Origin: a virus
Length of the DNA stretch: 64,000 nucleotides
IMG/VR virus record: IMGVR_UViG_3300025876_000005
Coordinates: 8,643-72,642 of that record
Strand: one strand, 5' to 3'
Positions within the stretch are counted from its first letter, which is position 1. Every line of letters starts with the position of its first letter. The translations under genes were made by a program, and so were the position numbers. Below the pieces are notes generated by a model. That model did not search any database, was not told where the DNA came from, and saw only the letters and a program-made list of their open reading frames with translations. Of this stretch, positions 1 through 63,586 are shown one piece after another.

Positions 1-1044
1 GGTAAGGAGCTCTATATTGTTGGCGGTGCTGTCAGAGATGCAATCATGGGTAAAAAGCCTAAGGATTTTGACCTTGCAACTGATGCCTTTCCAGAAGAGG
101 TGGTTAACATGGTCCAAGGGGCTGGTTACTCTACGATTGGAGAGGTTGGGCAGCAGTTTGGTGTTGTGATTGTGCAAATACCTTCAGATAAGAATGGAGT
201 TGAGATTGCCACGTTTAGAGAGGACCTTTCAGGAGGTCGCAGACCGGATGCTGTAAAATACTCAACCATCGACAAGGATGTTCTTAGACGAGACTTAACA
301 ATTAACGCTCTTTTCTACGATATTGGCAGAGGCGAGATTGTTGACCTGGTTGGAGGACTAAAAGACATCCAGGACCAGAAGATTCGAACTGTTGGCGCTG
401 CTGCTGATCGATTTGCTGAAGATCCATTAAGAAAGCTGAGAGCACTCAGATTTGCAGGCAGGACTGGTTCTAAACTAGAGAAGGAGACGGCAGATGCTAT
501 CTTGACCGACAATAGCCTGGAAGGTGTTAGCCCTGAAAGGATTCGTGATGAGTTTAAGAAGTCAATTGAATCTGCAAAGAAGCCAGTCGACTACTTAAAT
601 ATGGTTAGTCACTTTAGTCTATGGGATATTATGTTTCCAAATCTTGTAATTTCAACCAATTTTGTCAATACTAACACTTGGCCTATTCAATTGACTCACC
701 TGTTTGATATGAACTCAAACGATATGATTAAGAAGGAGATGAATAGGATGACTTTTACGTCAGACGAGGTTAATGCTGTGGTCTTTCTAAAGAACCTGAG
801 GGACCTTAAGCCTGAAAATGTGTTTGACCTTTACAAGCAGTGGGTGACCACCAAGGTTGACAAGGATGTAATTACACAGTTTGCGAAGATAAATAGATTA
901 GATCTGAAGCAAATTAAGGCCTTCTTAAAGTACAAACCAACAACCGATGGTAATTGGGTAATGCGAGAGTTTGGCGTTAAGGGACCACAAATTGCGCAAA
1001 AGATTAAAGAAATAGAGGCTGAAAAATACAAAAAAACAATATGA
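1..1044 (+). CDS. cca: CCA-adding tRNA nucleotidyltransferase / poly(A) polymerase family (class II), 5'-truncated by the window edge
   Basis: Frame is open from base 1: GKELYIVGGAVRDAIMGKKPKDFD (VGGAVRD...DxD), EIATFR, RRDLTINA, RFAEDPLRKLRALRF, ERIRDE motifs. Confidence 0.9.
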   Translation, partial: GKELYIVGGAVRDAIMGKKPKDFDLATDAFPEEVVNMVQGAGYSTIGEVGQQFGVVIVQIPSDKNGVEIATFREDLSGGRRPDAVKYSTIDKDVLRRDLTINALFYDIGRGEIVDLVGGLKDIQDQKIRTVGAAADRFAEDPLRKLRALRFAGRTGSKLEKETADAILTDNSLEGVSPERIRDEFKKSIESAKKPVDYLNMVSHFSLWDIMFPNLVISTNFVNTNTWPIQLTHLFDMNSNDMIKKEMNRMTFTSDEVNAVVFLKNLRDLKPENVFDLYKQWVTTKVDKDVITQFAKINRLDLKQIKAFLKYKPTTDGNWVMREFGVKGPQIAQKIKEIEAEKYKKTI

Positions 1045-1066
1045 AACACGTAAAACTAATTAAAGT

Positions 1067-1672
1067 ATGATTGTTTTAGACTTAATAGAAGAGCTAAATA
1101 AAGCTAAAGACGGTGTATCTAGCCTGGTTCGCTTAATAGGCAAACATAAAAAGGCTAGAGTTACTAATTCACCTTTACCTTATATAAGGTCTAGAGTGTA
1201 CACAGAACCAGAACACTTTAATACGTTAAAGCTTAATATAGGTGATTTTGTTTCTATTGCACAAGAATGCAAATTTCTACTAAGTGGAAACCATAACATG
1301 AATAGAGTAACTACATATTTGCCAGGTTTTAATCTATGCCAACCTAGAGAAGGTAACATTTTATCTAACGGTGAGATTACTATTGGTAACGATGTTTGGA
1401 TTGGACAGAATGTAACTGTACTAAGTGGTGTTACAATAGGCCACGGTGCTGTAATAGGTGCGAATGCAACGGTAACTAAAGATGTTGAGCCTTATACAAT
1501 TGTAGGTGGGTTTCCAGCTAAAGAGATTAGAAAAAGATTTGATAAAGAAACAATTAATAAATTACTTGAAAGTAAATGGTGGGAATTAGACCTTAATGCA
1601 TTAGAAGATAGATTTGAACTTATTTTCTCAGAGGATATTGAGGGCTTTTTACAATCATTAAAACAATTATAA
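1067..1672 (+). CDS. CatB/Vat-related hexapeptide-repeat O-acetyltransferase
   Basis: IGNDVWIG..VTVLSGVTIGHGAVIGANATVTKDVEPYTIVGGFPAKEIRKRF...LLESKWW signature. Confidence 0.88.
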   Translation: MIVLDLIEELNKAKDGVSSLVRLIGKHKKARVTNSPLPYIRSRVYTEPEHFNTLKLNIGDFVSIAQECKFLLSGNHNMNRVTTYLPGFNLCQPREGNILSNGEITIGNDVWIGQNVTVLSGVTIGHGAVIGANATVTKDVEPYTIVGGFPAKEIRKRFDKETINKLLESKWWELDLNALEDRFELIFSEDIEGFLQSLKQL

Positions 1673-1677
1673 ACCAT

Positions 1678-1866
1678 ATGAAAAAGTTAAACCAAGAAAG
1701 AATCCCAGTAATCACTGATATTCTAAATGACATTAACGCAAAGAAGGGAGTTGAGATTGGTGTTTTTAAAGGCCAATTTACTAAACAACTATTAGAGATC
1801 TCGGCCGTATACAATAGATATGATGATAGAGTTATTAAATTAAAGTCTGCTAAGGCACCTAAATAA
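1678..1866 (+). pseudogene. Truncated class I SAM-dependent methyltransferase fragment (Methyltransf_24-like N-terminus) with an unrelated tail
   Basis: GVEIGVFKGQFT motif I; only 62 aa, and the rest of the Rossmann fold is absent. Confidence 0.55.
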
Positions 1867-1868
1867 TT

Positions 1869-2120
1869 ATGAAACACGTAAAATCTTTTGAGCTATTTGA
1901 AAAAGCAACCAAGGCAGAATACAACTCTAAAATTAAGGACCTTAAAGATAAGATAGGAGACCTTGCCAACAAGTATGATGATCTTAGTGTTAAAAATAGA
2001 GATGAAGAAGATGCATACAAGCAAGAGATTAACGCCTTAACTTTACAAAAGATTCAGTTTCAAAAAGAAATAGCTAAAATCGATATAAATATCAACAAAA
2101 TAAAAAGAACAATACTGTGA
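1869..2120 (+). CDS. Hypothetical coiled-coil protein with MKHVKSFELFE leader
   Basis: ORF with A-rich start context; shared leader motif. Confidence 0.7.
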   Translation: MKHVKSFELFEKATKAEYNSKIKDLKDKIGDLANKYDDLSVKNRDEEDAYKQEINALTLQKIQFQKEIAKIDININKIKRTIL

Positions 2121-2995: not shown

Positions 2996-3035
2996 CGAAT
3001 ATGACAAATTGTTAATAACTTTTTGCAAAATAATT

Positions 3036-3066
3036 GGCCTGACATTTTTTTATGTCAGGCTTTTTT
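3036..3066 (+). terminator. Rho-independent terminator-like hairpin
   Basis: GCCTGACAT-6 nt-ATGTCAGGC followed by T6. Confidence 0.7.
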
Positions 3067-3068
3067 AT

Positions 3069-3090
3069 TATATTAGTACTGTAATTAAAA
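3069..3090 (+). promoter_or_regulatory. Putative early promoter, copy 1 (TATATTAGTACTGTAATTAAAA)
   Basis: 22-nt motif shared with 4525-4546 and 8222-8243, each upstream of small ORFs. Confidence 0.65.
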
Positions 3091-3098
3091 GCAACAAC

Positions 3099-3260
3099 AT
3101 GAGATATTTAGTAAGATACTGGAACGGACAAGAAATCATCAACGACCTTAGAACCAACAACATTTCACAAGCAATCGCCAGAGAGATTGAATTGCGCAAA
3201 GAGCTCGGTAAAGATAACGTATGGATGGCTGATGCTGTTCAAGAAATAATGGTAGGATAA
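3099..3260 (+). CDS. Small hypothetical early protein (MRYLVRYWNG...)
   Basis: ATG 3099 follows the promoter motif; the upstream part of the called ORF spans a terminator and promoter. Confidence 0.65.
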   Translation: MRYLVRYWNGQEIINDLRTNNISQAIAREIELRKELGKDNVWMADAVQEIMVG

Positions 3261-4496: not shown

Positions 4497-4524
4497 AAAG
4501 TTTTACCGATTCAAATATTATGTT

Positions 4525-4546: not shown

Positions 4547-4571
4547 GTTAAACCATTAAAAAATAAAAATT

Positions 4572-4787: not shown

Positions 4788-4808
4788 TAAACTTATACTA
4801 ATATAGAA

Positions 4809-7146: not shown

Positions 7147-7147
7147 A

Positions 7148-10568: not shown

Positions 10569-10582
10569 ATGATATATAAACC

Positions 10583-11305
10583 ATGAGGCATATAGAGACT
10601 TATAATGATTTTATCAACGAAGGCAGAAGCAAGTACGATGGCTTAGCCAATAAACTCGTGAGCCAAAACTTTAAGAAGTGGATTAAAGACTGGAAGAGTG
10701 GCAAGAAGCTATCGACCTTTATGCTAAGCGTTGAAGAGCGTGGACTAATCTTTGATCTTACTTCAACGATCTACTTTGGTGACGTTGAAGGTCAGCAGAT
10801 AAAAGGCTTTGAAGTCTTAGATTCAACTGGCGCTGACGGTAGAGATGAGTATTACGATGATGAAGGCGATCTAGTGGATCAGGATCCTTATATCTTAATT
10901 GACTTTGCAATCAACGATGAGTGGCTGCCTGGCGAATGGCAAACGGTCTATATGCACCTTGCCGACGTAATGCGCCACGAGATGGAACATATTACCCAAG
11001 ACGGTAAAAGTGTCGGAAACTACAGAATGGGCAAACCAGATGAAGATGACTCTGAAATGCGAGCCTTGATTAAAATGGGCTTCTTACCAAAGTATCATTA
11101 CTTGATGCTACCAAAAGAAGTAGATGCTAATCTACAAGGCTTAAGGTATGAGGCTAAGAAACGTAAAGAGTCGATTGCAGATGCTATTAACAGATATTTA
11201 GACGTTCAACAAGAACAAGATGTGATAGATAATGAAACAAGAGCTGAAGTTTTAGACCTTTGGCGCAGAAGAGCACAAAAAATAGGTGGCATTGGTAAAT
11301 TCTAA
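10583..11305 (+). CDS. Putative zincin-like HExxH metallopeptidase with MRHIETYNDFINE leader
   Basis: RHEMEH motif and downstream Y..LPKEVDA (possible third ligand E). Confidence 0.6.
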   Translation: MRHIETYNDFINEGRSKYDGLANKLVSQNFKKWIKDWKSGKKLSTFMLSVEERGLIFDLTSTIYFGDVEGQQIKGFEVLDSTGADGRDEYYDDEGDLVDQDPYILIDFAINDEWLPGEWQTVYMHLADVMRHEMEHITQDGKSVGNYRMGKPDEDDSEMRALIKMGFLPKYHYLMLPKEVDANLQGLRYEAKKRKESIADAINRYLDVQQEQDVIDNETRAEVLDLWRRRAQKIGGIGKF

Positions 11306-12225
11306 TGAAGATCAATACAACATATAATGATTTCTTAAACGAGAAGAAGAACAAGAAGAATTCAATTAAGTCTAAGGTCAAGAAGATTGACAAGAAGATT
11401 AAGAAGACTGTTGGCAAACAAGAAGATTTAGTTAAAACAGCCAAAGAGCTTGCTGATTCTCCGGAACCTTCTGATAAGATGAAGGCTTCACTAGCTAAGG
11501 TGCAACTACGTCAGTCTTCAGCAAAGGCACAAGAATTGGTTATGCGCAAAGAGGCTGAAATCTTAAAGAATAAAATTAAGGCTGCTAAGAAAAAAGAAAG
11601 AGCAACCAACGAAGATATGAAATTTGTAAAGCTCTTTGAAGAATTTGTTACCGAGAAGAAGCCGAAAGGCGCACCGGACTTTCATCACTCAGATGCACCG
11701 GATGCTGAAGGTCGCTTCAGAGATCTTTCTATTAAGGATCTAGCTGCTTGGCTAATTAAGACTCGCAAGAAGGATGTTAAGAAGATTAGTGGTTCATTAA
11801 CTCAACAATACGTCTTTAATCGCAACGACGATCCAGACTACGCTGAGAAGATGCAGAAGACTCGCAAAGAGGTTTATAAGCAACTTGGTAGAGAAGATCT
11901 AATTGACAAGATGGATGAGTCTTTAAATGAGTCAAATTATTATCCAGGTTTTGATGGTGTTAAGATTACCGGCTACGTTGAAGGCGATAAGGCTAAGTTA
12001 AACCACATTGAAGTTAAAGCTGCACAAAGAGGTGGTGGAATTGGCTCAAAGGCGGTTGCTGACTTTGAAAGATGGGCTAAAGAACAAGGTGCTAAATATG
12101 TAGAGATTGATGCATATAAGAAATCAATCAAGTTTTGGGAGAAGATGGGCTATGAACTAGAGAAAGAGTTTCCAGTGATGTATGGACATAAACAAGATTA
12201 CAAAACTGGAATAAAAGAACTATGA
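11305..12225 (+). CDS. Modular protein: Lys-rich N-module, central module (internal MKFVKLFEEF) and C-terminal GNAT acetyltransferase
   Basis: GNAT motif A QRGGGIGS and motif B SIKFWEKMGY after an ESLNES linker. Confidence 0.75.
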   Translation: MKINTTYNDFLNEKKNKKNSIKSKVKKIDKKIKKTVGKQEDLVKTAKELADSPEPSDKMKASLAKVQLRQSSAKAQELVMRKEAEILKNKIKAAKKKERATNEDMKFVKLFEEFVTEKKPKGAPDFHHSDAPDAEGRFRDLSIKDLAAWLIKTRKKDVKKISGSLTQQYVFNRNDDPDYAEKMQKTRKEVYKQLGREDLIDKMDESLNESNYYPGFDGVKITGYVEGDKAKLNHIEVKAAQRGGGIGSKAVADFERWAKEQGAKYVEIDAYKKSIKFWEKMGYELEKEFPVMYGHKQDYKTGIKEL

Positions 12226-12761
12226 AATTTATAAAGACATTTGAGGATTGGAATAATGTATCGCCAGAACTAAAGGCTCACATCGATGAGGACCTTGACT
12301 TAACCAATTCATTCTTTAGACTGGGCAGTGAGGCCTATGCTAAACTTTTTGAAGAGGTAAAAGAGTACTGGGATAAAGGCAACATCATTCTTAAAGGTCC
12401 AAGCGGTTGGATGGCTAAAAACCTTGAAGTTGGTAAGCCAGCAGTCTATAAAGAACGTGGCGGTAAGGCCAAGAAGGTTAAACTGGATTCACCAGAACGT
12501 GGTGGCAATAAGAAGTTTATTGTCTATCGTAACACTGGTCGAACTGATGAAGACGGTAATATTCTAGCTAAGAAGATTGAATGGGGAGACCCGAAACTTG
12601 CAGTTAAGAATGATGACCCTGGGGCAGCGGCTTCATTCTGGGCAAGACATAAATGTGACACTAAAGCTAAACAAGATCCTAATAAAGCCGGCTTCTGGGC
12701 TTGTTATGGGCCAACACTTTTTGGCAAACAACTAGGGCTTAAATCAGATCAACCATGGTAA
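12222..12761 (+). CDS. Phage hypothetical protein (SFWARHKC...KAGFWAC) with MKFIKTFEDW leader
   Basis: Motif recurrent in aquatic phage proteins; function unknown. Confidence 0.7.
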   Translation: MKFIKTFEDWNNVSPELKAHIDEDLDLTNSFFRLGSEAYAKLFEEVKEYWDKGNIILKGPSGWMAKNLEVGKPAVYKERGGKAKKVKLDSPERGGNKKFIVYRNTGRTDEDGNILAKKIEWGDPKLAVKNDDPGAAASFWARHKCDTKAKQDPNKAGFWACYGPTLFGKQLGLKSDQPW

Positions 12762-13060: not shown

Positions 13061-13102
13061 CAAGATATATAAAACCTAAGCACAAAAATAAAACTAAAGA
13101 AA

Positions 13103-13687
13103 ATGGCTAGAAAAATTTTATCATTTGAGGAGTACTCAAAGAAAGTAAACGCACCAGACGTTAGTGAAGAAGAAACTGACGAGGTGGCAACTGAAGACAG
13201 AGCTGAAGAGATCGAGGACGATGGCATAGAGACGGCTAACGAAGAAGATGAAGACGAGTCTGAAGAACTAGAAGGCGAAGAGTCTGATGAGGACGAGGAT
13301 GAAGACGAGGATGAAGACGACGACGATGATGAGGACGAGGATGAAGACGAGGATGAGGATGAAGACTCTGAAGAGGAGTCTGAAGAAGTTAAGTTAGCAT
13401 CTGAAATGTTAAAAGAAGTCTACGAATCTGCGTGTAACGAAGCTAAAGCATATGAAGGTGATGATTACCAAGAACATACCGTAGAATCTTACATGAAAGA
13501 GATGGCAGCTCTTAATGCTGGCATGATGGCTGAAATGTATGAGTCTGCGTGTGAAGGTGTTAAAGAAGGTGAAATGACTGTTGAAATGTACGAAGCATCA
13601 TGTAACGAGATGAAAGAAGCCTATGCTAAGAAGATGGATGAAATGATGGAAGCGTGGTCGGCTGATGCACCTGCTACTGAAGACTAA
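13103..13687 (+). CDS. Highly acidic protein with a poly-D/E tract and three E(V/M)YE(S/A)(A/S)C repeats; possible scaffold/core protein
   Basis: Composition; MARKILSFEEY leader; GATATATA upstream. Confidence 0.7.
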   Translation: MARKILSFEEYSKKVNAPDVSEEETDEVATEDRAEEIEDDGIETANEEDEDESEELEGEESDEDEDEDEDEDDDDDEDEDEDEDEDEDSEEESEEVKLASEMLKEVYESACNEAKAYEGDDYQEHTVESYMKEMAALNAGMMAEMYESACEGVKEGEMTVEMYEASCNEMKEAYAKKMDEMMEAWSADAPATED

Positions 13688-13709
13688 ACTAAATAAAAAT
13701 AAATTAAGA

Positions 13710-14468
13710 ATGGCTAAAATATTTTACGTAACAGAAAGAACGCCAGATTATGCTCAGGTGAATTTCTTTAAGACAGAAAAAGAGGCTTTGGAATATGGTA
13801 TCTCTGAATTACCACAATTCGACATGTATGACGAACCAACGAACGATGAAGAGGCTGATGGTGAAGAATGGTACCAAGGAGACTCTCTAACATTTAAAAA
13901 AGGAATCTTATTTTCATTTGAAGGTGGCGAGGTCTACGTTCAAGCAATGGAAGAAGACGCAGCTAGAGAATATGTTGAAGAGCTTGGTGAAGAAGGTGGA
14001 GCTATTTTCTTTGATGGCTTTAGCAGAGGAATGTATGGTTATCTAGGCACAGCAGCTGACGGTAAAGGTTTCAAATGGGACTGGGATGGCTACGATCTTA
14101 ATGAGTCAAAAAATGAAATACATAAAATGAAATACACAAAAACATTTGAATCATTTGTAAATGGTTCTACAAAAGAGCTTAACGAAAAAGTAAACGCATC
14201 AGGTTACATTAAAGCTGGTAAATTAGGTTATAACGATCAATTCCTAGGAAGACAATCACTTTCTAAAACATTATCATTAGATTTAGGTTTTGATAAAAAG
14301 AACGAATTTGGTGGTGGAGATTGGATTGGATTCGATCACGTATCAATGTACGCTTCTGGTAAAAAGGGTGGAACTATAATAGATGACGCACTAACCGGTA
14401 AATATACATATGATGAGTTAAAGGCAGCAGCTGCTAAACACTTTGGCATTAGCGAATCAGGTAGTTAA
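13710..14468 (+). CDS. Two-module hypothetical protein (internal MKYTKTFESF leader at 14127)
   Basis: Start re-assigned to ATG 13710; LNES/LNE linkers. Confidence 0.7.
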   Translation: MAKIFYVTERTPDYAQVNFFKTEKEALEYGISELPQFDMYDEPTNDEEADGEEWYQGDSLTFKKGILFSFEGGEVYVQAMEEDAAREYVEELGEEGGAIFFDGFSRGMYGYLGTAADGKGFKWDWDGYDLNESKNEIHKMKYTKTFESFVNGSTKELNEKVNASGYIKAGKLGYNDQFLGRQSLSKTLSLDLGFDKKNEFGGGDWIGFDHVSMYASGKKGGTIIDDALTGKYTYDELKAAAAKHFGISESGS

Positions 14469-42659: not shown

Positions 42660-42728
42660 ACTTGTTTATCTCAAGTTTCAGTCTATGATATATAGATTGC
42701 AGAAGCTATATAAAAAAGAAGGCAATAG

Positions 42729-45700
42729 ATGGCATTACAATCAATTAACTTATATTCTAAAACTGGAATAACTAATCCATGTACTGGTGGTGGTCAGGGT
42801 ACATTAGGCGTTTTCTATTGGGATGACGATGATGGCTCCAGCGGTAGTCTAACACCGAACTCTTTAGACACTATTGTAAGTAATAGTAAGGAGATCTATA
42901 ATGATAGCTTATTTCAAAGTTTAGCACAGGATGGTTGGTATGCTGAGTCTCTCTTTCCTGGTCAAAATCAAGTTGATGTGTATCAGTTTCAGAGTGGTAG
43001 CTGGGGGAGTTATACGCAATGTCAACCTTCTGCTACAGCTTCAATTACAGTTTATTATAAAGACCCTAATCAATTAGACCCTAGTGTAGGTCCTGATGAC
43101 ACTAATCCTTGTGACCCTAATGTCAGCGCATCCCAGGAAACAATCTACTATGACTCTACTGCCCAAGGTGGAGTAGGCTTTGGTTTAACTCTAGCACAGG
43201 CTATTCAGTACAACGTAGGCGTTTTTTATGATTTTAGTCTGAGTCAACAACTAGATGACGGTTGGTACGCTGACGATGATTTTCCAGATTCTGTAAATGA
43301 TGTAAACGTTTATCTTTTTTTAGGAGGCGCTCATTATTCAAATCTAAATACTAACGGTTATATTATATGCCAATCAACGGGAGGGACCTCTACAACTAGT
43401 GGAACTAGTGGAACTAGTGGAACTAGTGGAAGTTCTGGGACTGCAGGTGCTTTTTCATTAAGAGTAACCGCAGCAGAAGCAGCGCCTTTTTTATGCCAAG
43501 ATGTCACAGATGATGATCCCGATTCAACAATTCCTTTCTATACTATACACTATTGGACATCTAGTGGTCCTTTAACACTAGCTCAAGTAGCTGATGCAAA
43601 TATACCTATTTTCTCAGATGAGAATAGTGCTGTTGACTACGGCCTTCGTGTTCAGAGTGGAGTTACACCAACGTACAGTGGTATTATTAAGTTTAGTGGT
43701 TACTTTAGAGAATTTAAGCAGAGAGGTATATTCTATTGGGAATTTAATGACTCTAATCCGGCGAATTCTAAGTGGAGGAGCGAGTTACAAGATGATTGTC
43801 CGCCTATTCCAGAACCACAAGCATGGCCTATAACACTTTACCATGATAACACTTTGTCTAATCCAGATAGTATTTCAGAATACTGCTGTAGCAATAATTC
43901 AACTTCAGCAGTGTGGTATTACTGGAGTGTAAATCCTTATCCAAATCTATTAACTTTAGCTAATGCTGGTATTTTACTCTACAATACTGCAAATGCAGCT
44001 GAAATTTCTTTATTTCCTGAACTTATCCCATTTGGTATATGGGGAGATGACACTGGCATTGGCACTGATAAACTGCTTAAATTTAGACCTAATGATGATC
44101 TTCAACCAACATGGTTCGGCCTAGACGATAGTGATACGGAGACAGAGAGCCCTAACATCACACAATATTTTAACTGTGGTTATTTTACTCAGCCTGCTGG
44201 TAGCCCGAATACCAACATACAGAGTACAAGTCCTTTTGCGAACAAAGTATTTTATGCTTTTCATTCATGTGATCCAACAGCGGGCGAACATATTTTACAT
44301 GTAGTCGACGGGCAGCATTTTGCTAACGTTGACAACTTTATGAGTGACTTTATAGAAACTCTAGTAAGAACTAACCCTAAGTTGACAACTATTGAAACTG
44401 GCGTTATTGGCTGTCAAACTTACAAGCATAAAGTTATTGCAGAGAGCATCGAAGAAGCAGTGCAGCTTTTAAAAGCGGAAAAATTGAACGGTGTCAAATA
44501 TTATGATGCTGTACAAGAGTCTGAGTTAAGTGATTTAGGTATTGGTGACTTTGTAACTCTTAGTATTTACGCAGACTGCTGTGATTGTATACAAAGATTA
44601 AACGATAGTAGGTATCAGTTTGGTGAAACTGGTGTTGTTCAACCAGCTGGCCTAGGGCCTAACTTTGCAGTAGAGAGAAATGCAAAGCTGGATAACGTTG
44701 CTAAACCTCTTTTAAGAACTAATCCTAAACTAACAACTAATGTTAAACTTGTTGTTAACTCAAGAGATGAACTATATCTTGATTCGATCAGTGCAACTGA
44801 TGATTTAGCATCTGCTAATTACAAGAAGTTCCCGGTTAATCCAAGAGGATCGTATGCGTATGATCTGACTAGATTCTACACTAAGAATAAAACACCGCTT
44901 GAAATAGTTTACACAACTAAGAGGCGAGATTCTGACTTCTCTGTTTTCTCTGAGTATGAGAAACAGATCGAAGAAGATTACCATTACGGTACGGCAATGA
45001 ACTACTCTAAGTTATATGACGAGGAGTTTAGAATGTTTGCTCCGATCTATGTTGATCTAAATATGCCTAAGAAGTTTGTAATCTACAGGATAAACGACCC
45101 TAAGGATAGTACTTCTTTTACAGATAGTGCTCTTGGCAACGAAGCTAGAATTAAAAAGTTAATTGAGAAATCTGAGATTGTTAAGGTTTTTGATCTGACT
45201 AAAAATAGTAATATCGGTAAGTATTTAAGAAATTACGTACAGGATCAAGCCTTTCCAAAGGCTCCGATTACATTCTCATTCGAAGAGAATGAAAAGACTA
45301 CATATAATGGTATTGATTTAATTAAAGGTGGTTTTACTAAGAAGGCTGAGTATATGCATAACGATTTTATACTTAAAGATAAGCCTTTAGTAGCCGCTAA
45401 TGATTTTGTTACAGATGGCTTTAGAAGAAACCATATTGCGGCTGCAAACATCATCAACATGGAATTCTTGTTCGATGACCCACATGCAAGTACTTATTCA
45501 GTTAACAGATATATTGGTCTTTACGTAGATGATATTGAGACTGGTTCTGGTCGAGTTTCTTCGATTAGAAATGGTAGTATTATCTTTAAGAACGTGAACT
45601 CTAACATGAGCTCTACGTTTGACTATGCGGCAATACCTTCTTATAAGATGTTAACTGAAATGCCAATTTTAGCATATGCTAGAACTGGCGAAAATTACTA

Positions 45701-48700
45701 TAAGCTAGATAATACAAAGAGCTATGACCATAGTAGACTGGAGCTTAGAGTTCAGGACTCTAGAAATGAGATCCCAACACAGCTGGGTATACAGTACAAA
45801 GGTCAAACAATTGACATAAAGGCTAATCCTAACAGGGGGTTTGACTTTATCAAAGTTAAAGTTGTCGATATTCCAAACCACAACGATAAAATTGCACTGG
45901 CTACAGTAAAGAATGAGTCTTATAGATTTACTTTTGTTAAATTTGTAGCTAATGTTAACGTTCAGATTGATGATTCAGTTGGTAATACAATAACTTTTAA
46001 CACTGGTGCTGATATTACTACAGCTCTTTCTAACGTACAAACCGCATATACAGCTCCATTTGCTGATGTTTACAACCTTGAAATTTTAGACAATGGCTTT
46101 ATCTTAACCGAGAAGTTAGCCAATCTACTTAATCTAGCACCAGAAGTTACCACATCGAATGGTAACGTCTTTAATAGAAAGGAGATCTATACAAACGTTG
46201 AGATACCAAACAGATCTTATTATGCCGCAGATCCAAATACTGCAAGCCCGAATTACTTAACCAAAGGAACTTTCAGCGGACAATACTTTTCTGCTGCTGG
46301 TAATACTAGAGATGTCGCTATTGCTTTAACTAAGTTAATTAGAGAAAGAGGAGACTTTGATGCATTTAACATTGGTGATGAGATTTATATAAGTGTTAAG
46401 ATACCGGGTTATAAAATTATGCAGCAAGCATTCTTAGTTAACAGGAATAATACACTACCGTTCTTGGAGTTTGATGCTATTAACGTAGACTCTGATAACG
46501 AATTAGAGCTAGGAGATTTAGCTATCGGTACTTCTGGCAACTGGGATGCGTATTTCTTTAAAGGTGGTAATTTAGAGAATAAGAGTATTTTAGTGACTAA
46601 AGAAACTGCTCCAATTATAAGTGTAGGTGAGTATTTACCAACTGCATATAAGGGGCGTTATAATAGAGTCGTAGATATTGTTCAAGATATTACAGACCCT
46701 GCCGGTGATTACTTAAAGGTTATATTATCTTTGGAGAACTCAGTTAAGGATGGTGAGGTTAGAGTTTTTGTAGATAGAGACTTAACGATGGGTCTATTCT
46801 CAGCATACTCAATTTACGATATGGACTTTGACTTCCACGATACAGCTAATTCTAATCTTAAAGAATTGAATCACGAGACAATAGACCAGATAGTTTATGA
46901 ACCTTATAGTGGGGTTAGTCAAAATACTAGTCCAGGAGCAGGTGACCTAATAAAAACCGATGTTCTAGATGCAGCTTACGAAATTTCACCAGATTTATAT
47001 TTTGCTAATCTACAGCCTATTCTTGGCAACGAAGATATTGATGATGTTGACTTAGAATCAATCGGAAGTGAGTACGATAGGCTTTCTGAAAATGAAATCA
47101 AAGAGTTTGCAATAGGGTCAAGAGTTGTGCCTAATATTAACAAGTGGGTTCTAAGAAATGGAAATACTGTAAGAGAAGAGCCTTATCACTTAAACGCTAA
47201 TAGTGCTTTTGGTAGAACAAACTTTGCACCGGACCTTGAAGTTACAGAACGTGATATAAAAGCATTTACTCATGAATGGTTCTATATTGAAAACTTACCA
47301 GATTATTTAAGGTTCTGGCAGATTAACAATACTTTTAGTTACATTAACTTTATTAAAGGGTTTGATCTAACTAAAGACCTATTTAAGAGAGTTGACTACG
47401 ACTACTTCGATATGTTCATGGTCGGCGAAGGTCACGAAATTGATCTTTATAATGATGATCCACTTGAACGAGATTCAAGTCTTTTCAATATTAACAGTTA
47501 TGTAAAATCTAATCTACGTAAGAAATACACTATCATTGACAATGGTTCTTCTGAAACTTTTGCAAATACTATATTTAAGGGCTTAAATGTGACTCTTAAA
47601 TCTAGAAAAGAGTTTGTTAATAGCGTAGCTTCAGAATTTGTAAAGAATACCGAGTTCAACGGTTATAAGTTTAGTATAATGGTTAAGGTTAACAATCAAG
47701 CTTCTAACAATTCAATTGATTTTGAGGTTATTCAGAATAAGAAGTTTAAATTTGTAATCTTCTATATTACGTTGAATACGGGTGATGTTTGGGCATCAGA
47801 TCTAAACAGAAAGCTATTCTATGAACTTAAACACCAACTTAACTATAACACAGTTACTAATAAATACGTTTATGCTGATATAAACATTTCCGGCGCATTA
47901 GACTTAAAGGCTATTAATTTTAACGGTTTAAGTCCTTATCGAGTTTATGGTATTGACCATGCGGATGGATCAGTTTCTAATTTTGATTCTCAAATATCTA
48001 AGAATACTTCAGGTACTTATAATAATATTGTAATTGACTTAGGTGCTATTGGTGAATATCAAGTACAAGTCTTCTCAGTAGAATCTGATAGTGAACTTTT
48101 CATACAAGGTAGACCAACTAAAGTCGGAGGGTCTGTTAGCGACCCAGATTATTATTTAGATACAGTTGCTTTAAATATTGCTGATCTTAAGAACGCAACA
48201 TATACTTATATTGGCGGTGGTTTTAACGCACAGCAATTGATACTTAATGAATTAACTGCCGGTAATGTCTCTAAAGTACTTAACAACAACGATGACAGAG
48301 TTACTTATACAACTATCGAGAGTGATGGAACTGTAAATAATAATAGGTTTACTATTAACTTTAATGATGGTAAAGAGTTTGTTAAGAAGGTAGATCTAAC
48401 CACAGTTGAAGACGTTGATAAACCGAAGAGCTATAAATTATTAAGCACTGGTGTTACAGCAAAGTTGACTATAAGCGATCCGGTCGCTGCTAAAGAGAAG
48501 TATTATGATGATTATAATAAGTCTAAGAAAACAATAGGCTATAACATCGTAGCTACTAATCCATACTATGCATTCATGGTAAGACACTCAGGTGATTATA
48601 CTATAGATCTAGAACCTGTAGTTACCTTTACGGACATTTATACACACTTTAAAACAAATAGAAAGCACTCTACTCTAGATTTACGTGAACAACTATTTGA

Positions 48701-49664
48701 GACGCCTCTATATAAACACAGTCTGACTAGTTCAGCTGAGATTAACGTTGCTAGATCTTACTATAATAAATTCAATAGATGTGGTGTTGCTTTTAACGTT
48801 GGTTTTATTAAAGACTCAAACGTGATGAAGGTGGTTCAAGGTGAAGCTATTGTGCCTCAGGCGTCAACACATGATTTAGGTTGGGGTAAAATTAAGAACC
48901 ATTACTATCATAAGGTTAATGAGATTAATCCGAACGGTGTGTTGAAACTGACTAAAGGTGGAGACTTTTTACCTGTTTACCCGGTGATTGATGAGATAGC
49001 AATTGACTACAAAGATGTTAATGTCTTTAAGTCTTCTTGGGAAGATGGATATTACACAAGGTCTCTGGCAGGTGGTAATAAGGTTAACGTTGCGGGTACT
49101 TTTGATACTGCAGAAGAAAGATCTTATCTGGGTTCTACGGTCATGAAACTACAAGATGCTTATTTCTTAACAGAGTTTACAGTTCAGTTTGCAGGCTCGG
49201 AAGAAGAGCTAGACGATATTTTAAGAACTAATAATAATGAGAATGATGTTGTAATCTACGAAGACGATCAGACACTAATTGCTGACTTCTACATGAATGA
49301 CGTGGTCTATCAAAAATTAAGTGATCTCGGTGCTTTAAATACGCTTTCTCAGTTTATTGACCCGGTAAAGTCAATTGGTGATAAGACTACGCTGAGTGAT
49401 GATATGCAGGACTACGTAAACAAGAACTTGATTCAAGCGTTTACAATTGACCAGATTGACCTTTGGGTAAGTAGATTTAAAGGTGCTCAGTCTAATATAT
49501 TAAGCACTTCAAGTCTTGAGGGTCTAGATGACGGCGGCTTTACTAGAGATCAGAGCTTTACTTATAGCTTACATGGTGATACACCGCTAAACTTCAGGTT
49601 GATATATAACAAAAGACTAGGCTATTCTTACAATATTAGACCTATGATAAAAATACAGTCCTAA
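42729..49664 (+). CDS. Very large (2311 aa) virion protein with a Cys-containing repetitive N-terminal extension
   Basis: Uninterrupted ORF after GATATATA; repeated DGWYA modules and a TSG linker. Confidence 0.6.
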   Translation: MALQSINLYSKTGITNPCTGGGQGTLGVFYWDDDDGSSGSLTPNSLDTIVSNSKEIYNDSLFQSLAQDGWYAESLFPGQNQVDVYQFQSGSWGSYTQCQPSATASITVYYKDPNQLDPSVGPDDTNPCDPNVSASQETIYYDSTAQGGVGFGLTLAQAIQYNVGVFYDFSLSQQLDDGWYADDDFPDSVNDVNVYLFLGGAHYSNLNTNGYIICQSTGGTSTTSGTSGTSGTSGSSGTAGAFSLRVTAAEAAPFLCQDVTDDDPDSTIPFYTIHYWTSSGPLTLAQVADANIPIFSDENSAVDYGLRVQSGVTPTYSGIIKFSGYFREFKQRGIFYWEFNDSNPANSKWRSELQDDCPPIPEPQAWPITLYHDNTLSNPDSISEYCCSNNSTSAVWYYWSVNPYPNLLTLANAGILLYNTANAAEISLFPELIPFGIWGDDTGIGTDKLLKFRPNDDLQPTWFGLDDSDTETESPNITQYFNCGYFTQPAGSPNTNIQSTSPFANKVFYAFHSCDPTAGEHILHVVDGQHFANVDNFMSDFIETLVRTNPKLTTIETGVIGCQTYKHKVIAESIEEAVQLLKAEKLNGVKYYDAVQESELSDLGIGDFVTLSIYADCCDCIQRLNDSRYQFGETGVVQPAGLGPNFAVERNAKLDNVAKPLLRTNPKLTTNVKLVVNSRDELYLDSISATDDLASANYKKFPVNPRGSYAYDLTRFYTKNKTPLEIVYTTKRRDSDFSVFSEYEKQIEEDYHYGTAMNYSKLYDEEFRMFAPIYVDLNMPKKFVIYRINDPKDSTSFTDSALGNEARIKKLIEKSEIVKVFDLTKNSNIGKYLRNYVQDQAFPKAPITFSFEENEKTTYNGIDLIKGGFTKKAEYMHNDFILKDKPLVAANDFVTDGFRRNHIAAANIINMEFLFDDPHASTYSVNRYIGLYVDDIETGSGRVSSIRNGSIIFKNVNSNMSSTFDYAAIPSYKMLTEMPILAYARTGENYYKLDNTKSYDHSRLELRVQDSRNEIPTQLGIQYKGQTIDIKANPNRGFDFIKVKVVDIPNHNDKIALATVKNESYRFTFVKFVANVNVQIDDSVGNTITFNTGADITTALSNVQTAYTAPFADVYNLEILDNGFILTEKLANLLNLAPEVTTSNGNVFNRKEIYTNVEIPNRSYYAADPNTASPNYLTKGTFSGQYFSAAGNTRDVAIALTKLIRERGDFDAFNIGDEIYISVKIPGYKIMQQAFLVNRNNTLPFLEFDAINVDSDNELELGDLAIGTSGNWDAYFFKGGNLENKSILVTKETAPIISVGEYLPTAYKGRYNRVVDIVQDITDPAGDYLKVILSLENSVKDGEVRVFVDRDLTMGLFSAYSIYDMDFDFHDTANSNLKELNHETIDQIVYEPYSGVSQNTSPGAGDLIKTDVLDAAYEISPDLYFANLQPILGNEDIDDVDLESIGSEYDRLSENEIKEFAIGSRVVPNINKWVLRNGNTVREEPYHLNANSAFGRTNFAPDLEVTERDIKAFTHEWFYIENLPDYLRFWQINNTFSYINFIKGFDLTKDLFKRVDYDYFDMFMVGEGHEIDLYNDDPLERDSSLFNINSYVKSNLRKKYTIIDNGSSETFANTIFKGLNVTLKSRKEFVNSVASEFVKNTEFNGYKFSIMVKVNNQASNNSIDFEVIQNKKFKFVIFYITLNTGDVWASDLNRKLFYELKHQLNYNTVTNKYVYADINISGALDLKAINFNGLSPYRVYGIDHADGSVSNFDSQISKNTSGTYNNIVIDLGAIGEYQVQVFSVESDSELFIQGRPTKVGGSVSDPDYYLDTVALNIADLKNATYTYIGGGFNAQQLILNELTAGNVSKVLNNNDDRVTYTTIESDGTVNNNRFTINFNDGKEFVKKVDLTTVEDVDKPKSYKLLSTGVTAKLTISDPVAAKEKYYDDYNKSKKTIGYNIVATNPYYAFMVRHSGDYTIDLEPVVTFTDIYTHFKTNRKHSTLDLREQLFETPLYKHSLTSSAEINVARSYYNKFNRCGVAFNVGFIKDSNVMKVVQGEAIVPQASTHDLGWGKIKNHYYHKVNEINPNGVLKLTKGGDFLPVYPVIDEIAIDYKDVNVFKSSWEDGYYTRSLAGGNKVNVAGTFDTAEERSYLGSTVMKLQDAYFLTEFTVQFAGSEEELDDILRTNNNENDVVIYEDDQTLIADFYMNDVVYQKLSDLGALNTLSQFIDPVKSIGDKTTLSDDMQDYVNKNLIQAFTIDQIDLWVSRFKGAQSNILSTSSLEGLDDGGFTRDQSFTYSLHGDTPLNFRLIYNKRLGYSYNIRPMIKIQS
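43395..43430 (+). repeat. (ACTAGTGGA)x4 encoding a TSG linker
   Basis: Four exact 9-nt units. Confidence 0.9.
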
Positions 49665-55116: not shown

Positions 55117-55485
55117 ATGAAGACATTTAATAAATACTTAGTTGAAGAACATGTGACAGAAACCGACATGGAACTAATCAAAGAGGGTTTACAGGAAGAA
55201 TGGACTCCGGAATTAGAAGCTAAGGTTGATGCTGCTATCGATGAATTCATGAAGCAATACGCAGATGCTGATGGAAACTTAAGTATTGAAAGGCTTAATG
55301 AAGAGATGACTAATGAAGGTTTTCTAGGTTCTATCTTAGGTGGTTTAACAGGATACGCACTTGGTAAATCAGTTGGTAAAATGGTTGCTAAGGTATTGGG
55401 TATTGAAAAAGGTGTACTTTATGACTTGTTAACTTCAAGACTAGTCGGTGCTGCTTTAGGCGCTAGTCTTGGTAAAAGATTCTAA
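55117..55485 (+). CDS. Acidic pro-region plus glycine-zipper amphipathic C-terminal peptide
   Basis: MKTFNKYLVEE leader; TNE followed by GFLGSILGGLTGYALG... GxxxG repeats. Confidence 0.65.
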   Translation: MKTFNKYLVEEHVTETDMELIKEGLQEEWTPELEAKVDAAIDEFMKQYADADGNLSIERLNEEMTNEGFLGSILGGLTGYALGKSVGKMVAKVLGIEKGVLYDLLTSRLVGAALGASLGKRF

Positions 55486-59158: not shown

Positions 59159-59163
59159 TAAGA

Positions 59164-60678
59164 GTGGAACTTACACTAACGGAAAATAAACAGCTATTAC
59201 GAATTGACTCGGCTACAGACATGGAGCTCGAGCAACTCAACATATCCTTAAATAAGAGGATTGAATCATGGCGTTTTAACCCGTTGGTAAAGAAAGGTCT
59301 TTGGGATGGCTACATCTCATATATTAAAGACGATACGTGGATCCCGTCAGGCCTATGGCGTGAAGTTATGTTGATTGCTAAAGATTATAACTATGATCTA
59401 AAACTGAACGGCATCACTGAACTATTTGACCGCAACATTCAACAAGAGGCTTTTGAAGAATGGGCGTTAGACTTTTTTGACGGTCACCCAGACGGTATCT
59501 CACCTAGAGACTATCAGATGGACGCAGCTTTTAACATCCTAAAATTTAGGCGCTGTTTAGCAGAGCTGGCTACATCAGCCGGTAAGACCTTAATCTCATT
59601 CTTGACTGTGGCTTATACGTTAGAGAAGCAGAAGGCCGAGAAGATACTCTTTATTGTACCTAACGTTTCGCTTGTAGTTCAAGCATCTGAAGACTTCTTA
59701 GATTATAACTGGCAAAACAGAGTTAGTATTAAAGTACAGCAGATCTACAGTGGCCAGAAGATTAGAGCTGGGCGTAATGTTGTGATCGGCACATACCAGT
59801 CGCTTGTTAAGAAGAAGGCTGAGTACTTCGATCAGTTTGATGCAGTTATCATTGACGAGACACATAAAGCTAAGTCACAGTCCATTAAAACCATTCTATC
59901 TAAGTGTAAGAATGCAGACTATAGATTCGGACTATCAGGTACGATCCCTAAACCAGGTTCATTGGACCGATTAACCTTAATGTCACATACAGGCCCTGTA
60001 ATTACAGAGGTGACTGCCAATTACCTACAGAATGAAGGTCACATTGCTAAATGTAATGTAAAGGTAATTAAGATGGACTATGCTACTGAGTCTACAAAAG
60101 AGGCTTTTAGAGAGATGGCATTCAATAAATATGAAAGCAAAGATGTCTTTAAATTTGAACAAAATTACGTTATCAATTCGCCAGGTAGGCTCAACTTTAT
60201 TTGTAACGTTATTTCCAGAATACCACGCAATTCCCTTGTACTTTTCCACCGCATTGAACATGGTCAGCGTATTTATGAGAAATTGCGCCAAGAGAGTGAC
60301 AAACGGGTCTACTATGTCGACGGCGGTACCGATAAAGATATTCGCGAAGAATACAAGAAGAAGATGGAGGCGGGTGAAGAAGTGGTGATTGTAGCCTCTT
60401 ATGGTACATTTTCGACCGGTATTTCAATTAAAAAGATCCATAACATATTCTTTACAGAGTCGTTTAAGTCTGAAGTTATCATTCGCCAGTCGATTGGTCG
60501 AGGGCTTAGACAACACTCTTCAAAAGACTCAGTTAACATTATAGATTTTGTAGATGATATTAGTCTGCCGGACTGGGATAACTACCTGATTCGACATGCT
60601 AAAGCTAGACAGAAGATCTACAAGGAACAGAAGTTCAAGTACGATATTAAAAACGTCACTTTTGAAGGTGATATATAA
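59164..60678 (+). CDS. uvsW: UvsW-like SF2 DNA helicase
   Basis: PRDYQ, ATSAGKT, TYQSL, DETH, GLSGT, FSTGISIK, QSIGRGLR, DFVDD. Confidence 0.92.
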   Translation: MELTLTENKQLLRIDSATDMELEQLNISLNKRIESWRFNPLVKKGLWDGYISYIKDDTWIPSGLWREVMLIAKDYNYDLKLNGITELFDRNIQQEAFEEWALDFFDGHPDGISPRDYQMDAAFNILKFRRCLAELATSAGKTLISFLTVAYTLEKQKAEKILFIVPNVSLVVQASEDFLDYNWQNRVSIKVQQIYSGQKIRAGRNVVIGTYQSLVKKKAEYFDQFDAVIIDETHKAKSQSIKTILSKCKNADYRFGLSGTIPKPGSLDRLTLMSHTGPVITEVTANYLQNEGHIAKCNVKVIKMDYATESTKEAFREMAFNKYESKDVFKFEQNYVINSPGRLNFICNVISRIPRNSLVLFHRIEHGQRIYEKLRQESDKRVYYVDGGTDKDIREEYKKKMEAGEEVVIVASYGTFSTGISIKKIHNIFFTESFKSEVIIRQSIGRGLRQHSSKDSVNIIDFVDDISLPDWDNYLIRHAKARQKIYKEQKFKYDIKNVTFEGDI

Positions 60679-60715
60679 TACTGTAATAACAAATTTAAAA
60701 ACAAAGAAACATATA

Positions 60716-62281
60716 ATGGAACGATTAGTAACATTTGAACAATTTGCTGAGCAAAAGGCAAAAAAAGATCAGGTTCAACTTGAGGAAGAGTTGAATGCAA
60801 AAAGGGAAGCTTCAGCAAATAGCTTTAAGGACTTATTATCTGAATTCGGTGTAACTTCAATGAGTGAATTATCTGAAGAAGATAAGCCTAAATTTAACGA
60901 GAGATTAGGTACTTTAACAGAATCTGCACTATTGCTAGAAGGCACAAGATCTCAAGTAGGGAAGATCGATAAGAAAGGTAGGATTACATCGGTCTATGTA
61001 CACTATGATGGTTATCCAGACCACATGGTACCAATGATTAAGAACTACGACAAGAAAGGTGTTGACCAACTAGTTAAACTAGGTAAGTCTGGTATCTCAT
61101 ATTTAGACAAGAATATCGGTAAAAAGCAAGACTTTAATAGTCCAGTAAGGGGAACCACTCTATTCTACGGTAGAGATCGCGGAGAGAACAAAGATATGAC
61201 TACTACATGGACCAACGCAGCTGACATTAAAGGTTACTTTAAAGAAGTTGCTAATGACGGTGGAGCTGAATACGTTTATCTATATGATGAACGAGATGGA
61301 AAGTGGTACATGGGAGATACTTATGGTAGCCCTGTATTACAAGTAGTTGAATCAGTAAACGAGGCTGTTATTGCAATCAGTGGTAAGAGAACAGCCAAGA
61401 AAGTAGCTTTAAGACTAACCAGATTATTTGATACCAAGTTAACAGCTCTTGCTGCGGATAAAGTAACAATGCTAGGCTTCTTGAAAGAGTTATATTTCTA
61501 TGCAATGGAAGACGCTAACTTTTCACGCGAGGCCAATGTGACAATGAACATGATTAAGGGTAAGATTAGCCCGCTAGAAGTTAAAGTAGAAGGCTTGGAT
61601 GGTGAAGTTATTAGAATTTCAGCTAAGACGATAAAAACTATAGCAGACAAATACTACTCAGATCTTGCAAATGCAGGTGATTGGTCAGGTATTGGTATTA
61701 CTGAAGGTTTTGCAATGTACTTAGATCAAATCGGAGAGTCTAACATGGCACAAGCACTTCTTGACTCTTTTAATGCACAGTTTGAAGGTGAAGAGAAAAG
61801 AGTTTCTAGAACTGAAAAGCTTTATGAATTATCACAGAGATTAGAATCTACCAATGAGGCTAAAGAATCAGTAAACGAAGCTAAATACGATAAGAAGAAG
61901 CTTTTAAAGTTAATCAAGAATCATGATGATGCTGAAATCCTAGTTAATGGAAAATGGTACATCATCTATAATCCAGATAACGGTAATGACGAAAACACAG
62001 ATATGTGGAATGACGATTCAGTATTTGCATTAGATCAAGATGGTGAAGAGTTTGAAATCAATTACAAAGATATTGAGCATTTTAAAGAGTCTGTTGAAGT
62101 AAACGAGACTGAAATTAAATCTGATGATGAATTCAAAGAATATGCATTCACAATACTTCAAAAAGCATTTGGAGCAGACTTTGATGAAGCAAAAGCGCAA
62201 GAAGTTGTCGATGGTATCTTAGGTAAAGTTGATGGCGATTATGGTAAGGCTGCAGGTATTTTGCAAAGCTCACTTGGCTAA
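60716..62281 (+). CDS. Multi-module protein with MERLVTFEQF leader, a GTRS..YVHYDGYP domain and ESVNE linkers
   Basis: Start re-assigned to ATG 60716 after GATATATA; 18-nt near-repeat GAATCAGTAAACGA(G/A)GCT at 61349 and 61865. Confidence 0.75.
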   Translation: MERLVTFEQFAEQKAKKDQVQLEEELNAKREASANSFKDLLSEFGVTSMSELSEEDKPKFNERLGTLTESALLLEGTRSQVGKIDKKGRITSVYVHYDGYPDHMVPMIKNYDKKGVDQLVKLGKSGISYLDKNIGKKQDFNSPVRGTTLFYGRDRGENKDMTTTWTNAADIKGYFKEVANDGGAEYVYLYDERDGKWYMGDTYGSPVLQVVESVNEAVIAISGKRTAKKVALRLTRLFDTKLTALAADKVTMLGFLKELYFYAMEDANFSREANVTMNMIKGKISPLEVKVEGLDGEVIRISAKTIKTIADKYYSDLANAGDWSGIGITEGFAMYLDQIGESNMAQALLDSFNAQFEGEEKRVSRTEKLYELSQRLESTNEAKESVNEAKYDKKKLLKLIKNHDDAEILVNGKWYIIYNPDNGNDENTDMWNDDSVFALDQDGEEFEINYKDIEHFKESVEVNETEIKSDDEFKEYAFTILQKAFGADFDEAKAQEVVDGILGKVDGDYGKAAGILQSSLG

Positions 62282-62302
62282 TCAATAAAAAGAACTACAA
62301 CA

Positions 62303-63586
62303 ATGAGAAAATTACTTTCATATCAAGAATTTTTAGTTGAGAAAGCATCTGCTCCGGTAGATGCAAATCTCATTCTAGAGGGCGGTGCAGCTGGTCATAT
62401 GTCGCATCCGTTCGACGAAAAAGAATTGACATTTGGTGACTTTAAAAAGATCGTTGAGTTTGGCTTAAGAGGCGAACTTAACTTTGAAGAAGAAGTTACC
62501 GAAAAGACCGACGGACAAAACTTATTTGCAACTGTAATGGATGGTGAGGTTAAATTTGCCAGAGGTATTAATGATATGAGGAATCCAATGGATCTAAAAA
62601 CTTTTAAACAAAAGTTTGAAGCACATAAAAGTCCACTAGTAAGAGATACTTTTCAATTCGCAGCAGAAGATTTAGCAAATTCATTAAATAAGCTACCAGC
62701 AAAAGACTTAGAGGTTTTTAATAATGGTAAGAGTTTTATGAATATGGAGCTAATCTACTCGAAGAACCCAAATGTAATTTATTACGACAGGGATGTTATT
62801 CAATTCCATGGTATTAAACATACTGATGGTGATGGTAATGAAATAGGAGATGAAACAAAATACGCAGCATCAATTGCAAAGGTTCTTAAAGACCTTAAAC
62901 TTGATATGGGTAAAACATTTTCAATTATCCCACCACAAATCATTAAAATGGGTAAGGATATTGACTTCGATGCAAACAAAGCTAAATTCCTTAAACAAAT
63001 TGAAGATCTACGTAAACAGTACAACTTAACAGATGCTGATGAAGTTTCTATGTATCATGAAATGTGGTGGAGAGAAACTATCGATAAGAACTTTCCGGAT
63101 CTAACACAAGATCACAAAGAAGGACTTTTATTAAGATGGGCGTATGATGATAAGAAGACTCTTAATATAAGAAGTCTTGATAAAGAGTTAGGTAAAGATA
63201 AAGCTGCTCTAATTAAAAAGTTTGACAAAGAAGATGTAAAGAAAAAACAAAAAGAGAACATGAGACCTTTTGAAGATTTATTTCTTGAACTAGGTAGTGT
63301 TATCTTAAAGAACGCATCTAACTTTGTGGCTGCTAATCCAGCTGCAGAAATGCAGAGACTACAAAAGCAATTAAAAGATGAAGCGGAAGCAGTTAGAAAA
63401 AGCGGTGATGTTTCGGACATTGAAAAAGTTGCTAAAGAACTTGAAAGACTTGAAAGAATCGGAGGTATCGAATCAATTATACCAACAGAGGGTATTGTCT
63501 TTAGATACAAAGGCAAGACTATGAAGCTAACAGGAACATTCGCTGCAGTTAACCAGCTTATGGGTTTTATAAAATACGGTAGATAA
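62303..63586 (+). CDS. Ligase-fold nucleotidyltransferase-like protein (GGAAGHMSHP family)
   Basis: EKTDG (motif I KxDG), NMEL, EGIVF (IV), KLTG (V); leader MRKLLSYQEFLVE. Confidence 0.6.
   Translation: MRKLLSYQEFLVEKASAPVDANLILEGGAAGHMSHPFDEKELTFGDFKKIVEFGLRGELNFEEEVTEKTDGQNLFATVMDGEVKFARGINDMRNPMDLKTFKQKFEAHKSPLVRDTFQFAAEDLANSLNKLPAKDLEVFNNGKSFMNMELIYSKNPNVIYYDRDVIQFHGIKHTDGDGNEIGDETKYAASIAKVLKDLKLDMGKTFSIIPPQIIKMGKDIDFDANKAKFLKQIEDLRKQYNLTDADEVSMYHEMWWRETIDKNFPDLTQDHKEGLLLRWAYDDKKTLNIRSLDKELGKDKAALIKKFDKEDVKKKQKENMRPFEDLFLELGSVILKNASNFVAANPAAEMQRLQKQLKDEAEAVRKSGDVSDIEKVAKELERLERIGGIESIIPTEGIVFRYKGKTMKLTGTFAAVNQLMGFIKYGR

Follow-up and report, generated by a model that had tools for sequence, protein, structure and literature searches.

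The capsid targeting sequence (CTS) of bacteriophage T4 has been described mostly in T-even coliphages, where three small internal proteins (IPs) are loaded by means of it; one of them, IPI, blocks a host restriction enzyme. It is an N-terminal propeptide that the gp21 prohead protease cuts off (Mullaney and Black 1996; reviews: PMC9026906, PMC3012670, and PMC5694885). Of its ten residues, 4 and 7 are the main determinants of targeting and 8 and 10 those of processing, and an Asp at residue 10 stops cutting but not loading (PMC9026906). The internal proteins of T-even phages form a very diverse set whose common feature is the targeting sequence only (PMC3012670). We describe here a comparable leader peptide encoded in a 64,000-nucleotide stretch of DNA (the window), which is bases 8643–72642 of one 176,489-bp contig of an uncultured virus (IMG/VR record IMGVR_UViG_3300025876_000005), and elsewhere in the same contig. 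Our analysis makes it likely that this leader is a T4-type CTS removed by the head protease, and the protein cargo of this phage is probably far larger and more diverse than that of T4. Capsid targeting had been proposed in a preliminary description of the window; it is supported by a profile match to T4 IPII and IPIII, a gp21-type protease, matching cleavage sites, and the conserved columns of the leader.

The leader spans 13 residues, with the consensus M-K-x-h-K-x-(F/Y)-E-x-F-(I/V/L)-N-E. A whole-genome scan identified 18–19 strong copies and 3–4 looser variants in the 176 kb, or ~22 carriers, about one-tenth of the genes. All 11 peptides named in the preliminary description are present, nine of them at ORF (open reading frame) starts and two internal (window 11617 and 14127), each of the latter with more than 100 open codons upstream; its shared leader stands, while its count of about 10 proteins does not, there being ~22 per genome with roughly half of them in the window. 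Copies beyond those in the window lie at genome positions 182, 444, 76651, 77481, 77945, 78363, 104357, 116376, and 123750. The looser forms are MKTFNKYLVEE (window 55117), MARKILSFEEY (window 13103), MHFLDFNSFLNE (genome 97508), and MMKLKNKLMLFEEFAE (genome 108732). Every copy is on the coding strand, and for all but three a stop codon is found only a few codons upstream.

The leader is not due to chance. With a leave-one-out matrix, 17 of 19 leaders score 15.3–40.7 bits; the best of 168,343 other six-frame 13-mers reaches 10.2 bits in the same test, and only one of 20 shuffled proteomes attained 15 bits. The two weakest members, including the one at 13103, score near zero and are doubtful taken alone. 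The core motif (aromatic-x-x-aromatic-hydrophobic-x-Glu) is enriched 15-fold at N-termini (residues 1–15) across the 205 genes called (Fisher P 1.4e-10), and three of its 15 internal occurrences sit in the scaffold part of the protease ORF. Another possible variant of the leader, MKNYYMTDEDFTSFLDE at genome 148945, has the core motif at residue 11. Past the leader the carriers are unrelated, as had been claimed: BLASTP of the bodies (beyond residue 16) yields one self-overlap only. A paralogous family as the source of the shared leader is ruled out by this lack of body similarity and by the 49 body clusters found among 64 carriers.

A hidden Markov model built from 18 leaders of this phage only (profile A1) gave exactly two matches in the whole T4 genome searched in six frames, the N-termini of ipIII and ipII (15.9 bits; E 0.005 per genome). 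In the T4 record, IPII and IPIII begin MKTYQEFIAE and IPI begins MKTFKEF. Column conservation was measured on 91 distinct leaders of the clade: column 7 is F or Y in 88 (3.8 bits), column 10 is F, Y, or W in all 91 (4.3 bits), column 11 is I, L, or V in 84, and column 13 is E in 73 (2.5 bits). These best-conserved columns correspond to T4 residues 4 and 7 (targeting) and 8 and 10 (processing). From column 14 on the information is 0.2–0.6 bits, a drop that coincides with the predicted cut after Glu13; in the present phage, 16 of 22 carriers have the Glu site at residue 12 or 13. Profile A1 found no match in five other phage genomes totaling 1.36 Mb (Tenacibaculum phages PTm1 and pT24, Prevotella phage Lak-C1, cyanophage S-SSM6b, and Aeromonas phage 44RR2.8t), and this form of the leader therefore appears limited to one clade, together with the T-even likeness. 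The PTm1 gene between portal and protease has a different start.

The genome encodes a T4-type head module in T4 order (genome 101.6–109.6 kb), comprising gp4, gp2, the gp20 portal (PF07230, 6e-74), a 118-aa leader carrier, a protease-scaffold ORF, the gp23 major capsid protein (MCP; PF07068, 7e-45), and a 286-aa leader carrier with a membrane-like segment. The 118-aa carrier, in the portal-protease interval, occupies the position of T4 genes 67/68. A search for a gp21-like protease, suggested in the preliminary description, was successful (PF03420 at 46–49 bits, above cut-off; phrog_207 at 1e-43). The protease forms the first 200 residues of a 734-aa ORF (genome 104769–106973, outside the window) that combines a gp21-type protease and a gp22-like scaffold; its GELDHP and SSRA align to GELNHP and SSRG of T4 gp21, around the catalytic His and Ser. 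The remainder of the ORF is acidic, looks helical, and has a dense series of (H/Y)-(V/I/L)-A-E-(K/S/G/A) sites in the pattern of T4 gp22, and a protease-scaffold fusion of this kind is annotated in the record of Tenacibaculum phage PTm1.

The annotated MCP ORF (genome 107109–108623) begins 12 codons early; most of 54 distinct relatives aligned begin MANL(I/L)NE(A/S)E, which places the actual start of the present protein at Met13. Across the same 54 relatives the protein keeps a conserved KLYE/DA at the position of the T4 gp23 LTE/A maturation site. Sites of the (I/L/V)-x-E form crowd the scaffold part and are kept at the N-terminus of the MCP, a match to T4 gp22 and gp23, and are predicted to be cut. 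A protease and candidate sites for it are therefore both in place.

The T4 CTS (..EFIAEA) resembles the gp22 N-terminus (..QLIAEA), and this likeness, with the presence of the leader core motif in the scaffold, suggests that the tag imitates a scaffold repeat. The leader would form a short amphipathic helix resembling the phage's own scaffold repeat, (F/Y)-x-x-Y-(L/I)-x-E, and would co-assemble with the gp22-like scaffold core during prohead formation, enclosing the attached protein. The scaffold-fused gp21-type protease would then cut after Glu13, at the same (I/L/V)-x-E motif as in the scaffold and the MCP propeptide, and the mature protein, freed inside the head, would exit with the DNA at the next infection. 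We infer targeting, cleavage, packaging, and injection alike. Some carriers, such as the acidic 118-aa protein, are more likely to be core components comparable to T4 gp67 than injected effectors.

The contig has a G+C content of 38.6%, carries nearly all of its genes on one strand, and is ~59% complete by the record's own estimate. The phage belongs to an uncultured marine clade that has huge Bacteroidota-type phages among its relations. A megablast search with 21 kb of the window gave no match among GenBank phages; the phage is placed by protein only, nearest to LR756500 (an uncultured 462-kb genome whose MCP is 51% identical) and then to the Lak and Tenacibaculum phages (~33%). More than 586 MCP relatives at 65–99% identity were found in IMG/VR. 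In the head regions of 80 relatives (1.25 Mb), the matrix detected 80 leaders, all on the coding strand and all at ORF starts, mainly on the small gene of the portal-protease interval and on the gene after the MCP gene. Four large relatives have 23, 16, 8, and 7 profile matches, often in arrays, and LR756500 has 18 leaders of the form MKYIKxYxDF(I/L)NE.

The leader genes of relatives mostly have different bodies. The 64 carriers come from five genomes, and their division into 49 body clusters agrees with the diversity of T-even internal proteins (PMC3012670). Tandem arrays of 4–12 small unrelated leader ORFs occur at genome 76651–78881 and in two relatives (G001, 70.8–73.0 kb; G003, 174.9–182.7 kb). 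These arrays recall the polymorphic IP loci of T-even phages; the one at genome 76651–78881 is without a late box. In full-text literature searches, no publication turned up that describes a capsid targeting sequence for Bacteroidota-type phages or marine far-T4 phages.

The + strand has 32 occurrences of the sequence GATATATA, whereas the – strand has a single one. The sequence is intergenic, lies almost always 12–50 nt upstream of gene starts, precedes the portal, protease-scaffold, and MCP genes, and appears to act as a late promoter. Fourteen of the 22 carriers are located within 2 kb downstream of a copy, compared with 33% of the genome (P 0.003), and seven are headed directly; the earlier statement that several carriers belong to late-box units is borne out on both the box and the units. 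In the window, boxes on the + strand at 10571–10578, 13064–13071, and 60670–60677 stand 12, 39, and 46 nt upstream of the carriers at 10583, 13103, and 60716, respectively. The start of the last is fixed at 60716, since this is the first ATG past the box at 60670. For the carrier at 55117, the late box is 267 nt upstream, within the preceding gene. A late box at 42687 also lies upstream of a 2311-aa ORF (window 42729–49664) within the tail/baseplate block.

Pfam and PHROGs searches over 19 carriers returned only GNAT, DUF5661, phrog_1987, and phrog_1250, the other carriers being without a family. The GNAT assignment, made already in the preliminary description, is firm on profile evidence (Pfam Acetyltransf_1 at 2e-08, 34.9 bits against a cut-off of 20.7; phrog_1249 at 1e-10). 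It belongs to a 306-aa ORF (window 11305–12225, + strand; Lys plus Arg 23%) that has two leaders, with MKINTTYNDFLNE at its N-terminus followed by a lysine-rich 104-aa segment, the internal MKFVKLFEEFVTE at 11617, and the GNAT domain. The DUF5661 domain, in the carrier at genome 182, is likewise of firm identity. Another carrier, an AAA/HTH protein assigned to phrog_1250, bears its leader on an extension of 136 residues. The phrog_1987 domain, a phrog with function unassigned, is found in a 521-aa acidic carrier (window 60716–62281, + strand; leader MERLVTFEQFAEQ, 23.4 bits), for which the protein atlas gave nothing usable. Some carriers have lysine-rich segments and in this resemble the basic internal proteins of T4.

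Two carriers are core genes of the clade, and both retain the leader with an invariant or nearly invariant Glu13. The first is a 427-aa protein (window 62303–63586, + strand; leader MRKLLSYQEFLVE) with 1768 homologs, in which F10 and E13 of the leader are nearly invariant. It is probably a nucleotidyltransferase of the RNA-ligase kind, judging from its motif I, EKTDGQN (KxDG), and EGIVF..KLTG, both invariant in 22 homologs. The protein falls in DUF6267-type clusters of the protein atlas. Its AlphaFold 2 (AF2) model is poor (predicted local distance difference test [pLDDT] 63), the top Foldseek rows are T4 Rnl1 and Trl1, weak at E 0.13 or worse, and a PDB profile search gave nothing relevant; of the proposed ligase-fold enzyme, the motifs are confirmed while the fold is only weakly matched.

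The second core gene encodes a 240-aa carrier (window 10583–11305, + strand; leader MRHIETYNDFINE followed by a folded domain with HEMEH) with 311 homologs, and HEMEH is invariant in the 26 homologs compared. In its AF2 model (pLDDT 84.8) only residues 1–14 fall under 50, and the leader is therefore a tail outside the fold. The fold itself has no significant match (Foldseek E 0.085 or worse; best VIA-align Z 5.6, on a helical sub-part). Of the suggested metalloprotease, the invariant HExxH motif is upheld, whereas no zincin fold was matched by Foldseek or VIA-align, and metalloprotease activity is a lead only. The "pore-like" peptide also named in the preliminary description is unsupported, its basis being a glycine-zipper match under the cut-off.

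The remaining carriers in the window differ in how closely they follow the consensus. An 83-aa carrier (1869–2120, + strand; 22.6 bits) has the leader MKHVKSFELFE, with its Glu at 11 not 13, and is without an upstream late box; its ortholog in relative G002 retains the leader. The next is a 292-aa basic carrier with a GTG start and the leader (M)KKVGLYEQFVNE (2117–2995, + strand; 30 bits), which has no family match in Pfam or PHROGs. A 332-aa ORF with the start MGKKPKDFDLATDAFPEE (46–1044) is the first gene of an operon containing two leader carriers and, by eye only, resembles a nucleotidyltransferase of the CCA-adding/poly(A) polymerase type. A 179-aa carrier (12222–12761, + strand) has the leader MKFIKTFEDWNNV, identical in its G001 ortholog; it lacks Glu13 and so is probably uncut at that site. 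The 122-aa carrier with the short-form leader MKTFNKYLVEE (55117–55485, + strand) has the T4 spacing, with aromatics at 4 and 7, Leu8, and Glu10. Behind a late box, a 194-aa protein that is 43% Asp plus Glu (13103–13687, + strand) begins with the weak leader MARKILSFEEY, likewise weak in its G001 ortholog; this protein could be a gp67-like core filler or a DNA mimic.

A lysine-rich segment precedes one of the three internal leaders, a 154-residue domain another, and a DUF3008-like domain the third. Besides the copy at 11617, a 267-aa ORF (window 13665–14468, + strand; 32.6 bits) has the internal leader MKYTKTFESFVNG at 14127, with Gly for Glu13 and 160 open codons upstream. Past the window end, at genome 77169–77927 (window-equivalent 68527–69285), an ORF opens with a DUF3008-like domain (MPSTSKAQQRLMGMAY...) that runs on in frame into an internal leader and then a body of 148 aa; this fusion may represent tandem cargo or an in-frame internal start. 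Internal leaders in general could mark tandem cargo freed by cleavage.

Several observations weigh against capsid targeting. Eight of the 22 carriers are outside recognizable late units, four of them following non-structural-looking genes at the left end and the other four making up the 76.6–78.9-kb array; on whether the motif is restricted to late genes, the 14 carriers in late units speak in favor and these eight are the main soft spot. Glu is absent from positions 12 and 13 in six of 22 carriers, and the three internal leaders have a position outside what T4 sequence studies covered. The T4 match has a modest E value (0.005), and both of its hits are the identical peptide. Closer cultured relatives have no profile match, so the likeness to T4 could be convergent; it may be either that or inherited. 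One carrier is an RNA-ligase-like core gene, and to our knowledge such enzymes are not known as packaged proteins in T4. Finally, the leader-bearing phages are all uncultured, and the role proposed for the leader is read from their genes. A broader proposal, which we put forward tentatively and at slightly less than an even chance, is that an abundant uncultured marine T4-related clade (hundreds of contigs, up to 462 kb) loads ~10% of its gene products into the capsid by an ancient tag shared with T4. This cargo would comprise at least 20 different, mostly lineage-specific proteins in each phage, including RNA-ligase-like, GNAT, and HExxH proteins, some of the cargo being tandem polyproteins divided by internal leaders, and would form a large and fast-evolving arsenal of pre-made effectors injected together with the DNA.

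The most serious alternative is that the leader docks proteins to the scaffold core and that most carriers are transient core or assembly parts like gp67/gp68, degraded or expelled at maturation, with no large injected cargo. The 118-aa and acidic carriers probably do have such a role; the best-conserved carrier is in the gp67/gp68 position with a gp67-like acidic tail, another is 43% acidic, and the gene after the MCP gene also bears a leader. As an account of most carriers it is unlikely, because many of them are folded enzymes or domains (GNAT, HExxH at pLDDT 85, and ligase-like) that, unlike scaffold, have few internal (I/L/V)-x-E runs, and because the carrier set is hypervariable among relatives, a better fit to arms-race cargo than to assembly parts.

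The leader might instead direct proteins to another destination or partner: to the membrane, to the tail or baseplate, to a degradation or chaperone system, or to a modifying enzyme with an affinity for the common N-terminus. In favor of this, three carriers do have a hydrophobic segment, and eight carriers are outside late units; against it, most carriers are without a membrane segment, and the leader ends in the head protease motif, resembles the scaffold repeat, and matches only CTSs in T4. No radical-SAM gene, a candidate for a leader-modifying enzyme, was found in the 176 kb of this ~59% complete record. We regard another destination as improbable.

Selection acts on the leader peptide, not on DNA. 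Conservation of the nucleic acid itself (a region for translation initiation or repressor binding, or a cassette recombination boundary, with the peptide as by-product) would fit the clustering of carriers in arrays (76.6–78.9 kb; relatives), and a shared 5' end promoting cassette exchange has been proposed for the T-even IP locus, but it is highly improbable and largely ruled out by codon-position analysis: mean information at codon positions 1, 2, and 3 is 0.94, 0.86, and 0.51 bits, hydrophobic columns fix position 2 only, synonymous codons are mixed (TTT/TTC 63/25; GAA/GAG 44/29), and the 24 nt upstream of the leaders hold at most 0.4 bits.

If the leader is a capsid targeting sequence that works in these distant, Bacteroidota-type relatives of T4, the tag would be an old element of the head assembly program of T4, and such phages would devote about one-tenth of their genes to pre-made cargo. 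N-termini alone would then reveal which proteins uncultured phages, in their hundreds, package and inject. Many candidates for anti-defense and host takeover would be expected in that set, mostly proteins that belong to no known family. The natural variety of tag variants would also be of use for the protein-packaging applications developed with T4.

Comparison with the T4 CTS reveals the same short N-terminal propeptide on unrelated proteins, with aromatics three apart followed by hydrophobic-x-Glu, in a genome that also has a gp21-family protease, a gp22-like scaffold, and gp23, and with cargo bodies that are hypervariable among relatives. In contrast to T4, three extra residues stand between the Met and the first aromatic (except in the carrier at 55117), and Asn precedes the Glu where T4 has Ala. 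There are ~22 carriers per 176 kb here and three IPs (plus Alt, gp67, and gp68) in T4; carriers here include enzymes, three leaders are internal, and protease and scaffold form one ORF. The T4 sequence was defined by experiment, whereas the present leader is known from genes. The 118-aa carrier shares with T4 gp67/gp68 its place between portal and protease, and with gp67 an acidic C-terminal tail, but no sequence similarity was detected between them, and gp67/gp68 are without an IP-type start.

The inner-body and ejection proteins of the giant phages phiKZ, 201phi2-1, and SPN3US are likewise packaged in the head in large numbers, a gp21-related protease trims them after Glu, and identical N-terminal propeptides occur on some paralogs (PMC5694885). 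Their S80 protease, however, cuts after (S/A/G)-x-E, with a small P3 residue rather than I, L, or V (PMC5694885), and their propeptides are long and diverse, with no single common 13-residue leader, in another lineage with another head gene set. The mechanism proposed for the present phage is thus a known one, that of the T4 CTS; what would differ is the lineage, the longer tag, the scale (up to 23 copies in a relative), the enzyme cargo, the internal leaders, and the fused protease-scaffold.

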